Source of the DNA: Gemmatimonadota bacterium
GTDB taxonomy: Bacteria; Gemmatimonadota; Gemmatimonadetes; Palauibacterales; Palauibacteraceae
Direction of reading: 5' to 3'
Length of the DNA: 64,000 bases
Assembly: GCA_039588275.1 (NCBI GenBank)
Contig: JBDHAC010000024.1
Span: forward strand, 1-64,000
The translations under genes were made by a program, and so were the position numbers. The notes beneath the pieces are model-generated. The model saw nothing but the letters and a program-made list of their open reading frames with translations. It searched no databases and was not told the DNA's origin. Below, piece after piece: positions 11,555 through 16,851 of the stretch. Numbering within the stretch: the stretch's first letter is position 1; every line of letters starts with the position of its first letter.

Positions 11555-11710
11555 GGGCTCCGCCCGGCGCTCGCCGCCGGACTGGCCTGCTCTTTCATCG
11601 CGTTCCCGGGGGGTGCCACTTGCGCACCGCGCCGGCGGCGGTACTTTCGCCCGTCTCCGTTGTCTCGTTCTCCCTGTCCCTGGAAGGACCTGTCCCGGAA
11701 GGAGTCGCTC

Positions 11711-12460
11711 ATGAAGTGGAGGAACTTGCTCATCCCTGTCGTGGCCGTCCTGGCGTTCGCGCCCCAGCCGGCCCAATCCCAGTCGCTGGTCGGCATGTAC
11801 TACCGTTGCAGCACGGCCGATGAAGGCGAGGCGGACTTCATCATGAACCAAGTGCTCAGCCGCGTCTTCGACCGAAACGTCGAGGCCGGGAACATGACCG
11901 GCTGGGGCTGGGTCGAGCATCAAGCGGGCGGGGCCTGGCGCCGGATCGCGACAATCACTGCTCCCGATCGCTCGGCGCTCATGACCGCCTGGGGGCAGGT
12001 CATCAACGAGATCGAGGACGAGCACCCGAACGCGTGGCACCGGTTCAACGAGATTTGTGACTCGCACGACGACTACATCTGGAGCCTGGTCGCCTCGGAC
12101 GCGGGCTCGGACCCGTCCGTCACGCCAGACGCTTGGGTGTCGACCTATTGGGTCTGCAGCGAGCGGACCGAGGCCCGGGCCAACGAGATCTTCCAGGAGA
12201 CCATCGCGCCGGTGATCGACAGGCACATCGCCGCCGGCCACCTCGGAGGATACGGCTGGTACGCGCACGATCTCGGAGGGCGCTTCCGTCGCCTGATGAC
12301 CCTCCAGGCGGCGGATGACTTCGATCTGCTGGAGGGGCGCCAGATGGTCATCGATGAGCTCCAGTCGGACCATGCGGACGCACTCGATGAGTTCAGCTCG
12401 ATCTGCAACGGCCACGTCGACTATCTGTGGGCGAACGCTCGCTCGGGAGCCGACGAGTAA
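11711..12460 (+). CDS. Secreted hypothetical protein made of two homologous ~100-aa domains
   Basis: AAGGAG RBS, signal peptide, and internal repeat ICDSHDDYIW / ICNGHVDYLW. Confidence 0.8.
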   Translation: MKWRNLLIPVVAVLAFAPQPAQSQSLVGMYYRCSTADEGEADFIMNQVLSRVFDRNVEAGNMTGWGWVEHQAGGAWRRIATITAPDRSALMTAWGQVINEIEDEHPNAWHRFNEICDSHDDYIWSLVASDAGSDPSVTPDAWVSTYWVCSERTEARANEIFQETIAPVIDRHIAAGHLGGYGWYAHDLGGRFRRLMTLQAADDFDLLEGRQMVIDELQSDHADALDEFSSICNGHVDYLWANARSGADE

Positions 12461-12937: not shown

Positions 12938-13669
12938 ATGGTTCTGCTGCGGAAGGTGGTAGCGGTTGGCGCTCTACTCGCGCTGGCCGGCCTCATCTGG
13001 ACGCTCGAGCGCGGCTCATACGGCGTCAATCCGCGGTTGGTGATTGCCACTCGCGTACTGCTCTTCCCACTGGGTGTCGCCATCACAGGCGTGCTCCTCG
13101 AGCAGTATTGGGGGCGGTGGCTGGCGCTCGCGGCCGCGCTGGTGGTTCTCCCCTGGGCCCTCGTCCTGACCTTCGGACTGCCTCCCGGTGTCCCATTGAG
13201 GCAGCAGACGATCGCCCTGATCGCCTCCGGACTGCTGCTCCTGACCCTGTCGGGTCGAGTGATGTTCGAGCGATACGAGGGGCGCGCGGCGACGGATTGG
13301 ACCGGTCTCCGGATGGGGCTCGTGCGCTGGACCATCATCCTCAACATGGCGTCTGCCGCAGCGCTCTTCCTGTTCGTGGCGCTGTACCGCTACACGATCG
13401 AATGGCACGTCGTCCTCCCGGCCGTACTGCTCGTGGCTCTCGTGGCCGGCGTGCTGATGCTCACCCGGCAGAAGACCCTGGGCCTCGTCCTGGTGGCGCT
13501 AGCCTGCGTTCTATTCGTTCCGGCGGCGGCGTTCTTCGTCTGGATGGAATCGAGCTACGCCGGCGGAGTGCGGATCTTCGCGATGAGCTTCATTCCGGGT
13601 GTCGTGGCCGGGTGGGCGTGCCTGTTCGCCTTCGGGCGCCCCATCTGGCGCACGCTGCGCACGGACTGA
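12938..13669 (+). CDS. Hypothetical integral membrane protein (about 8 TM)
   Basis: GAGGTG RBS and many hydrophobic segments. Confidence 0.75.
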   Translation: MVLLRKVVAVGALLALAGLIWTLERGSYGVNPRLVIATRVLLFPLGVAITGVLLEQYWGRWLALAAALVVLPWALVLTFGLPPGVPLRQQTIALIASGLLLLTLSGRVMFERYEGRAATDWTGLRMGLVRWTIILNMASAAALFLFVALYRYTIEWHVVLPAVLLVALVAGVLMLTRQKTLGLVLVALACVLFVPAAAFFVWMESSYAGGVRIFAMSFIPGVVAGWACLFAFGRPIWRTLRTD

Positions 13670-14681: not shown

Positions 14682-14903
14682 CTGGAATCTCCCACGGCTA
14701 TTGGCACGCGTACCCCCATCCTTCGAGGCACATTCGGTCTCGGTCGGTCTTCCTCCAAGGTCGTTTCCGAGACTCGCAGACGCGAGGCTTCGGCAGCGAG
14801 CCGAGACAGCCGGCCTGGATGCGCCCTCTAGCGCGGCACACCGCGGCACAGCACGCTACTAGCCGTTCGGCACGTTCCACCTCACCCACGAAAGGACTGA
14901 GAC

Positions 14904-15491
14904 ATGCGCCGACTTGCGGTCTACAGCCTCCTGGCGGGAGCGTTCGCGCTCACGGGTGTCGCTCCTGCGGCTGCCCAGGGGGAGTCGGAACTCCTCCCCG
15001 TCGGTGCGGCGGCTCCCGACTTCGAGCTGCCCGGGGCGACGCGGCATGGCCTCCTGGCAAGCCCCGTCAGCCTGAGCGAGTACCGGGGGGAGACGGTCGT
15101 CCTGGCGTTCTTCTATCGCGTCAGAACACCTGGGTGAACGGTTCAGATGAGAGCGTACCGGGATCAGTACGCAAGCGTATTCAACGAGGGACGAAACGTC
15201 GTCCTGATCGGCATCTCGAACGACTCGCCCGATGAGCTCGCCTCCTGGCTGAAGGACGAGGACTTCCCGTTCGTGTTCGCGAGCGATGCCGCCAATGAAG
15301 GTGCGACCTACACGGAGTTCGGCGGCGGCCTGAGGGACAACAACATGGTCGAAAGCCGGAGTGTGATCGTGGTGGGGCCCGATGGCCGGATCGCAGGGGT
15401 CATCCCCCGGTTCAACCAGGTCGATCCGCTGGCCTACGAGGAGCTCGGGGGGATCATCGACGAGGTGACGCCGGAACCGGAAGATCCGTAG
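14904..15491 (+). CDS. Exported peroxiredoxin-like (AhpC/TSA, BCP-type) selenoprotein; UGA at 15135-15137 read as Sec (195 aa)
   Basis: ORFs 14904-15137 and 15147-15491 are in the same frame. Joined they read VG..APDFELP...SLSEYRG.TVVLAFFYRVRTPG-U-TVQMRAYRD...VVLIGISNDS...FPFVFASD...RSVIVVGPDG, with UGA at the peroxidatic Cys position. No Cys elsewhere. AAAGGA RBS. Confidence 0.88.
15138..15172 (+). promoter_or_regulatory. Candidate bacterial SECIS element
   Basis: Stem GCGTAC (15153-15158) pairs with GTACGC (15167-15172) around a G-rich loop CGGGATCA. The stem starts 15 nt after the in-frame UGA. Confidence 0.6.
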
Positions 15492-15535: not shown

Positions 15536-16117
15536 TCAGCTCCCGCCAGACGCGGCCTTCCCCACGATTCGCTCCACCGCACCGATCAGGTCCTGCTGCC
15601 CGCCGACACCGGTGTAGGCGACCTTGCCTTCCCCATCCAGGATAACGACCACCGAGGTGGTGGGCGCCTCGTAGGCCCGAACCGCCGCGCCACGGCCATC
15701 CCAGAGATACGGGTACCCCGGATCGTGCGCCTCCAGGTGTCGCTTGACGCGCCGGAGAGACTGGGACACGGCTACCGCGACCGCGACGATCTTCAGGCGC
15801 TCGCCATGGGTTGCGTGAATCCGGTCCAGCTGCGGCTGGAGCGCTTCGCAGTTCTCACACCAGCTGGCCCAGAACTCGATCAGGGCGGGCCCGTCACCGA
15901 TATAATCCAGAAGCTCGGCGGGATTCCCGTCCAAATCCTCGACCGCGGCCGCCGGCGCCCGGGTCCCGATCGCGAGGCCGACCTCGCCTTCGCCCGCCTG
16001 GGCCCGAAGCGCGCTCGGAGCCAGGCCGGCCCCGATCAACAGGAGGCACGTTGCGATGGCGGCGCCGCGAATGCGTGAGGCGCACGGCGCTTCGCGAGGA
16101 GATGCCGCGCTCGTCAT
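15536..16117 (-). CDS. TlpA/ResA-like thiol-disulfide oxidoreductase, exported
   Basis: Signal peptide, AP...EDLDG, IEFWASWCENC, and VVILDGEG. ATGA overlap with the ccdA stop. Confidence 0.88.
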   Translation of the reverse strand: MTSAASPREAPCASRIRGAAIATCLLLIGAGLAPSALRAQAGEGEVGLAIGTRAPAAAVEDLDGNPAELLDYIGDGPALIEFWASWCENCEALQPQLDRIHATHGERLKIVAVAVAVSQSLRRVKRHLEAHDPGYPYLWDGRGAAVRAYEAPTTSVVVILDGEGKVAYTGVGGQQDLIGAVERIVGKAASGGS

Positions 16118-16851
16118 AGATTGAAGCCCGCTCTGATGAAGTAGTATTCGGCCATCGCGATCATAATGACCGCTGCGGCCCGTTTCATCCACACCATCCA
16201 CCGACCGGAACGCGGCAGGCGGGCCAGGGTTCCCGAGAAGATCCCGACCAGCACGAGCAGCATCGTCATACCGATGGAGAACACAAACAGGTACACGAAG
16301 CCCATCAGCCCGGCACGGGTGGCGGCCACCCAGGTGAGAACGACCGCGAACGCCGGCGCCCCGCACGGTGCCGCCACGATGCCCGAGCTGGCGCCGAGCA
16401 GGAACACCGCGCCGTAAGAACCGCCGCCGCGTCCGCTCGCCCACTCCAGCGCACGTCGCGGGACGGGCACGGGGAACACGTCCAGCATGAAGAGCGCGAA
16501 CAGGACGAGCAGGTTGCCGATCGCCGCGAGCGCCCATGGGTTGGCGCTGACCGTCCCGAACAATGTGCCCGTGAGCCCGGCGATCATGCCGAGGAGGGCG
16601 TACAGCACTGCCAGGCCACAGACATAGGTCAGCGTGAGCCCGACGGTGCGACCCCGCGTCTGGTCTTCGCGCGCGGTGCCCGTGATGATCGACGCGGTGA
16701 TCGGGATCATCGGGTAGATGCACGGCGTGAGGCTTGTGAGGACCCCGGCCACGAACAGCGTGCCCAGCGCGAGCAGCGGGCTGCTCGAGAGCGCTTGAGA
16801 GAGCCCGCCGGACGGCTCCACCTGGAGCAACACCAGAGAGAAGTTCATCAC
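16114..16851 (-). CDS. ccdA: CcdA/DsbD-beta membrane electron transporter
   Basis: About 6 TM with the two Cys-Pro motifs SLTPCIYPMIP and VAAPCGAP, plus LPRSGRWM. Confidence 0.88.
   Translation of the reverse strand: MMNFSLVLLQVEPSGGLSQALSSSPLLALGTLFVAGVLTSLTPCIYPMIPITASIITGTAREDQTRGRTVGLTLTYVCGLAVLYALLGMIAGLTGTLFGTVSANPWALAAIGNLLVLFALFMLDVFPVPVPRRALEWASGRGGGSYGAVFLLGASSGIVAAPCGAPAFAVVLTWVAATRAGLMGFVYLFVFSIGMTMLLVLVGIFSGTLARLPRSGRWMVWMKRAAAVIMIAMAEYYFIRAGFNL

Follow-up and report, generated by a model that had tools for sequence, protein, structure and literature searches.

Selenoproteins of the 'Peroxiredoxin (Prx), TxxU' family (PF00578 / COG1225) are described in the accessible portions of the Sargasso Sea survey of 2005 (PMC1088965), the GOS survey of 2008 (PMC2398784) and a 2026 review (PMC13188914), which calls the motif PxxxTxxU highly conserved and cites PrxU of Eubacterium acidaminophilum as an experimentally verified selenoprotein. 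For peroxiredoxins at large, the accessible text of one study calls the active-site Pro, Thr, Cys and Arg absolutely conserved (PMC3322552), and that of another describes the proline as a barrier to solvent (PMC3337327). The closest described entry is AACY01587908, listed as a Sec 'Peroxiredoxin' in the available part of the Sargasso supplement (PMC1088965), which carries the motif FFFRVRTRG-U-TVQM and shares its hairpin sequence with the clade that we describe here; the clade had therefore already been catalogued, although its export is not visible in that entry, which begins after the signal peptide. BSepDB probably holds further members.

Here we analyze one such gene in a window of 64,000 nucleotides (positions 1 to 64,000 of a Gemmatimonadota contig, JBDHAC010000024.1). 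It shares the TxxU motif and a BCP-type fold with the family as described in the accessible text of the ocean surveys, and it has Sec at the peroxidatic position as does PrxU, which belongs to a different subfamily (NF040737, score 36.8). The first-pass annotation of the window had read the locus as a Sec-peroxiredoxin; our results support that reading but lower its novelty, given the 2005 entry. The selenoprotein itself is thus no discovery, and the part that looks new is a coupling between the active-site proline and the choice of Sec or Cys. In the open-access literature that we searched, we found no report of this coupling and none that names a Sec-peroxiredoxin of Gemmatimonadota.

Results

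The gene appears in the window as two ORFs in the same frame, 14904–15137 (77 aa) and 15147–15491 (114 aa), which are parted, as originally described, only by a TGA and the codons ACG GTT CAG. Reading through the TGA gives a 195-aa product with Sec at position 78 and, as had been claimed for the joined protein, not a single Cys. A contig of sequencing run X1 spanning 14702–15304 matched the window with zero differences, TGA included, but is not independent because X1 is possibly the source sample; runs X2 and X4 covered the gene in part. The expectation that annotation pipelines would split such a gene was borne out, in that the window's own halves exist in public collections as separate 77-aa and 114-aa proteins, and among the 150 library matches listed 20 stop at the Gly that precedes the UGA and 25 begin at Met82.

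Table 1. Features of the peroxiredoxin locus and its neighbors, in window coordinates.
Feature	Position	Strand	Remarks
Shine-Dalgarno-like AAAGGA	14891..14896	+	From sequence; 7 nt upstream of ATG
Putative single gene, 195 aa with TGA as Sec; BCP/PrxQ-like peroxiredoxin fold, no Cys	14904..15491	+	
Predicted signal peptide, residues 1–24	14904..14975	+	Basic N-end, hydrophobic core, AAA before Gln25
Tyr71 codon TAT; column is Pro in canonical PxxxT/SxxC	15114..15116	+	Most Sec/Cys-discriminating column
Thr75 of TxxU	15126..15128	+	Thr/Ser in 153/154 Sec and 19/19 Cys forms
In-frame TGA, inferred Sec78, peroxidatic position	15135..15137	+	Cys codon at the same column in homologues
SECIS-like hairpin, 6-bp stem, 8-nt loop	15153..15172	+	15 nt after TGA
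Arg152, catalytic Arg column	15357..15359	+	Arg in 152/152 Sec and 142/142 Cys distinct rows
TlpA/ResA-like exported thioredoxin (WCENC), candidate reductant	15536..16117	-	Convergent; start codon inferred
CcdA / DsbD-membrane-domain protein, candidate transmembrane electron donor	16114..16851	-	

The proposal of a hidden selenoprotein with a recoded UGA hinged on whether the genome has the Sec machinery and on which residue relatives have at the TGA column, and both came out in favor of Sec. Genes for selA, selB, selD and tRNA-Sec are all present with scores over their cut-offs, and selD (L007, G000:C4) itself has an in-frame TGA. TGA stands at column 78 in all of the 80 best of 235 genome-collection relatives (66–87% identical; record titles mostly naming Gemmatimonadota), with Cys in other homologues. 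Across 101 genomes of the family, each of the 71 matches at E < 2e-45 carries one internal TGA, selA is found in 94 genomes and selB in 92. Phylum-wide, 173 of 201 genomes have a match to the gene, with 0/19 in four families, from this class and outside it, and 0/3 in one more. The 171 loci that we retrieved across the phylum gave 173 matches for the motif and hairpin tallies, comprising 154 with TGA, 19 with a Cys codon and no third class, a ratio that says nothing of prevalence because lack of a stop was the criterion by which the Cys loci were selected. The unpublished genome G248 enters three of our tallies, but none of our conclusions depends on it. Among the matches listed, selA is present in 125 of the 127 genomes with a TGA copy, and 20 of the 21 genomes in which only a Cys copy was seen are without it, these being related genomes rather than independent ones; the two TGA genomes with no selA match are G271 and G274 (94–95% complete). 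Taken with the Cys at the same column and the conserved hairpin described below, these results support the original reading, and we conclude from the comparison of sequences that the in-frame UGA almost certainly encodes Sec.

Three genomes carry both Sec and Cys copies. Two-copy genomes include G206, G234 and G231; G256 (L203) has two Sec copies 4.7 kb apart, and in G180 (L188) a Sec copy with Pro adjoins a Cys copy with Pro. A second TGA-marked peroxiredoxin match, in G050, was rejected as an upstream stop ahead of an ordinary Cys BCP. Three loci in records with Gammaproteobacteria titles (L029–L031) have the length and motif of Longimicrobiales loci and are possibly mislabelled.

The hairpin GCGTAC/CGGGATCA/GTACGC lies where the first-pass annotation had placed it. 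Its loop, which had been called G-rich, is so in the present variant but not in general, 139 of the 154 TGA genes having the loop CGTGATCA. Folding, which had been suggested as a check, gave a divided answer: the 26-nt hairpin piece is modestly above chance (z = -3.31, 2/200 shuffles), whereas 61–81 nt after the TGA do not fold above shuffles (z = +0.41 at 61 nt). The hairpin of a single sequence is thus weak evidence alone, and it is the comparative data that carry the putative element. The stem is fully paired in 154/154 TGA genes versus 2/19 Cys genes; the Cys gene L170 retains five of six pairs. In TGA genes the choice among synonymous codons in the stem is fixed (Ala GCG in 147/147, both Tyr TAC in 147/147), whereas in Cys genes it varies (for the first Tyr, TAC in 69 and TAT in 58, n = 127); because the stem is invariant among TGA genes, it offers no compensatory pairs. 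SelB bound to this hairpin would deliver the Sec-tRNA. Codon bias also extends past the hairpin: using relatives L099–L269, we found that Arg at -4 (15123–15125) is AGA, AGG or CGA in 106/150 TGA genes versus 227/1227 elsewhere in the same genes, and that Gln at +3 (15144–15146) is CAA in 98/154 versus 33/381, which suggests a recoding context wider than the hairpin. In selD, the site GAG-U-ACK is followed, from 11 nt after its TGA, by a 9-bp hairpin with a GGA loop; the peroxiredoxin loop contains (T/G)GA at a similar distance from its TGA.

The Pfam domain AhpC-TSA (PF00578) covers residues 33–164, across the TGA, with 81.7 bits (cut-off 26). Structure prediction from the single sequence was uninformative (pLDDT 40.6), but a model from a 59-row alignment (pLDDT 94.5) has BCP and AhpE as its best structural matches, in agreement with the earlier claim of a complete BCP/Prx-type fold. 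The 1-Cys AhpE/BCP structures 1xvw, 4x1u, 3hjp and 5epf have the same fold (TM-scores 0.76–0.80 to the model), and 2cx3, also of this set, is the best sequence match; all five are Cys enzymes of 25–28% identity, and none is from the present clade. The motif reads FFYRVRTPG-U-T, with Tyr71 at the Pro column, Thr75 in place and, as had been noticed from the sequence, the conserved late Arg retained as Arg152. With T75-P-G-U78 and a PF00578 score over the cut-off, the gene is a member of the known TxxU peroxiredoxin selenoprotein family; it lies below the cut-offs of the BCP equivalog NF006960 (54.2 versus 140) and of PrxU NF040737 (36.8 versus 270). Thr/Ser, the distal Arg and the peroxiredoxin fold are as in canonical peroxiredoxins, but the Pro of PxxxT/SxxC(U) is absent here, as it is from 148/154 Sec forms, which puts the gene outside the canonical Pro-containing motif class. 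A resolving Cys is absent from the mature domain of all 154 Sec and all 19 Cys forms. Because the column that lacks Pro here is one that the accessible text of PMC3322552 calls absolutely conserved, a peroxidase function is an extrapolation.

Some relatives diverge at the active site itself. A second Sec copy, L250 (G231:C112), has the loop FFHKAHSKL-U, without the Gly that precedes Sec, and P0087, P0100 and P0104 are relatives with a signal-peptide-like N-terminus and the peroxiredoxin fold that have Ser or Asn at the catalytic column and are possibly non-catalytic.

The first-pass annotation had taken the change from Pro to Tyr as the mark of a divergent subfamily. Tyr71 is confirmed, but it is more than such a mark, since within the subfamily the column tracks Sec versus Cys. 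The residue is Phe in 98 of the 154 Sec forms, Tyr in 46, Ile in 2, His in 1 and Val in 1, with Pro retained in 6, and it is Pro in all 19 Cys forms. No other column discriminates Sec from Cys as well (0.92; next best 0.66). With patterns that did not constrain the Pro column, 33 of 34 Cys matches in 401 genomes had Pro, as did 120/120 Cys loci among the metagenome matches listed, a redundant set from which divergent forms may escape. The lone non-Pro match in the genomes, L295 (G278), was dropped as unrelated (score 44 versus at least 119 for the rest) and is presumably a tyrosyl-tRNA synthetase. Among the library matches listed, Pro occurs in 42 of 43 Cys motifs and Ser in the other, and Phe or Tyr occupies the Pro column in 19 of 20 N-half proteins that end before the UGA. 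Two library proteins, P0012 and P0029, may be errors, one having Tyr at the Pro column with Leu at the catalytic column and one having Cys with Ser at the Pro column. Other Sec-peroxiredoxins of the Sargasso survey with the column visible have Pro in 22/25 and Ser, Thr or Ile in 3 (27 of the 43 peroxiredoxin entries, namely those matching 'GuT', in the available part of PMC1088965). Sec therefore does not require loss of the Pro, which 6/154 Sec forms here and these 22 keep, and the three exceptions fit a relaxation of the column under Sec.

Before tree building we masked the Pro column, the Sec/Cys column and the residues encoded by the hairpin. A single clade of Sec, non-Pro forms was rejected (p-AU 1.9e-69; heuristic search, LG+G4; 131 rows, ten long or outgroup rows being omitted). 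A careful tree (LG+G4, 149 columns) of 135 rows, which remained of 294 after thinning at 75% identity, requires at least 18 changes of the Sec/Cys residue and at least 17 of the Pro column, and its well-supported branches give 10 independent pairs, of which on average 7.8 go the same way, 0 the opposite way and 2.2 show no difference (median p 0.008). With quick trees, the supported pairs numbered only 6 and fell short of significance (p 0.0625), and a Pagel-type test (LR 84) is indicative only, with rates at their bounds and a pair count that allowed one pair per polytomy. Pro and the Sec/Cys residue thus switch together repeatedly on the masked-alignment tree, at p 0.008 on the careful version and 0.0625 on the quick ones. 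The Pro column can also change alone, as seen in the near-identical L139 and L140 (144/150 residues), which are both Sec forms yet have Tyr and Pro, respectively. The nested Cys lineages, the loss of selA and the decayed hairpins suggest reversion from Sec to Cys, and L139 and L140 suggest that it may pass through a state with Sec and Pro, a direction that depends on the root.

The protein is likely exported: by a custom, lenient heuristic that tried several starts per gene, a signal-peptide-like N-terminus was found in 144/154 Sec and 17/19 Cys relatives versus 21/93 control ORFs. A convergent TlpA-like gene lies within 3 kb in 63/80 loci and CcdA in 60/80, while DppA and a methyltransferase, also neighbors here, occur in 1/80 each. 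Among related genomes with short flanks or contigs, the TlpA-like gene adjoins 18/20 and 37/81 more distant Sec loci versus 0/25 and 1/80 Cys loci. The CcdA is the only copy found in the genome. Its stop overlaps the inferred TlpA start at 16114–16117 (ATGA), which suggests translational coupling. Because the pair is on the opposite strand, adjoins only 37/81 distant Sec loci and includes the sole CcdA found, it may act on other substrates. Peroxide would be attacked by the selenolate, which Thr75 and Arg152 would hold in place; because a resolving Cys is missing, reduction of the oxidised selenium would have to come from outside, the TlpA-like protein fed by CcdA being the most likely source, an assignment to which we give about an even chance. 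This candidate pathway, known here from the gene neighborhood, resembles that of PprX of Caulobacter crescentus, which the accessible text of PMC3322552 describes as an exported BCP/PrxQ-type peroxiredoxin that is reduced by the thioredoxin-like TlpA, itself fed by a DsbD-family membrane protein. In that account PprX has Cys, PXXXTXXC, a resolving Cys and ScsB as donor, whereas the present protein has Sec, lacks both the Pro and a resolving Cys, and is encoded near a CcdA-type protein. Elsewhere in the window, 11660–12460 holds a 266-aa ORF without a Pfam match, apparently exported and made of two similar halves, and 12938–13669 holds a 243-aa membrane-protein ORF without a Pfam match that has a 53% paralog on C1.

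Discussion

From these sequence comparisons we think it very likely that the locus is one intact gene whose UGA almost certainly specifies Sec, encoding a likely exported, single-selenium peroxiredoxin with Tyr in place of Pro that is predicted to reduce peroxides in the envelope. We find it highly implausible that the TGA is a true stop (in a pseudogene, through a sequencing error or between two proteins) or that a different code assigns it to Trp, Gly or Cys: separate proteins of 77 and 114 aa in public collections and an in-frame ATG four codons past the TGA would suit such readings, but the TGA is fixed in the 80 closest and in 154 relatives with both halves conserved, the Met82 encoded by that ATG is kept in 126/127 Cys genes and is therefore a protein-level residue, TGA is the commonest stop of the genome (981 of 1617 long high-GC3 ORFs), and the sole TCA-anticodon tRNA reported by ARAGORN is tRNA-Sec. 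For the replacement of Pro, our tentative preference, held at a little under an even chance, is a catalytic adaptation specific to Sec, in which selenium would make the Pro dispensable and an aromatic residue preferred, the Cys enzyme would need the Pro back when Sec is lost, Sec with Pro would be a viable intermediate, Cys without Pro would never be tolerated, and a dedicated CcdA–TlpA relay in the envelope would recycle the enzyme. The aromatic residue could instead serve recoding in a genuine selenoprotein, its codon or the nascent peptide in the tunnel favoring Sec insertion over termination. This explanation, which we judge unlikely, stays viable because the codon bias reaches -4 and +3, and, with the ribosome paused at the UGA, residue -7 would lie in the exit tunnel. 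On the other hand, we saw no sign that a Pro codon upsets the hairpin, which six natural genes with Sec and Pro fold equally well (mean pair probability 0.87 versus 0.76); anti-Shine-Dalgarno pairing ahead of the UGA is not enriched in Sec genes; 144/148 replacements are Phe or Tyr, which points to a choice at the protein level; and the constant Pro of the Cys forms is left unexplained.

Shared ancestry, or recombination of the active site with copies that have Cys and Pro, might produce the association without repeated selection, an account that we consider quite improbable. The alignments offer only 149–151 columns and leave many forks unresolved, three genomes hold both kinds of copy, and with 21 nt between the two codons a single recombination could shift both together. 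Opposed to this account are the rejection of a single Sec, non-Pro clade, the independent pairs, none of which runs the opposite way, the Pro column changing alone between L139 and L140, and the Cys gene L170, which still has five of its six stem pairs. The protein might also be mainly an envelope redox relay or reductase with the peroxiredoxin fold but another substrate, its pocket reshaped by the Arg-rich loop (RxRT) and the aromatic residue. The missing Pro, scores under the NCBIfam cut-offs for BCP and PrxU, the lack of a resolving Cys in every mature domain and the conserved link with the CcdA/TlpA pair are all compatible with such a role, but the peroxidatic triad keeps its Thr/Ser and Arg, the Cys members of the clade bear the full canonical motif and the best structural matches are the BCP and AhpE peroxidases, and we regard it as a decidedly long shot.

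For annotation, the consequence is that a Sec-peroxiredoxin gene stands split in two in public collections. For the organisms, our results suggest a selenium-based peroxide defence of the envelope in a widespread, little-studied class. Why some enzymes use selenium despite the existence of cysteine versions is a long-standing question. The gene itself is ordinary for specialists, but the coupling of Pro and Sec makes a clean experimental question of it: the clade offers natural sets with Sec and Phe/Tyr, with Sec and Pro, and with Cys and Pro, leaving Cys without Pro as the missing class, and such matched variants bear on what the Pro does and what selenium replaces. If the adaptive reading is true, the exported single-Sec peroxiredoxins of the Gemmatimonadetes would constitute a repeated natural experiment on selenium versus sulfur catalysis.
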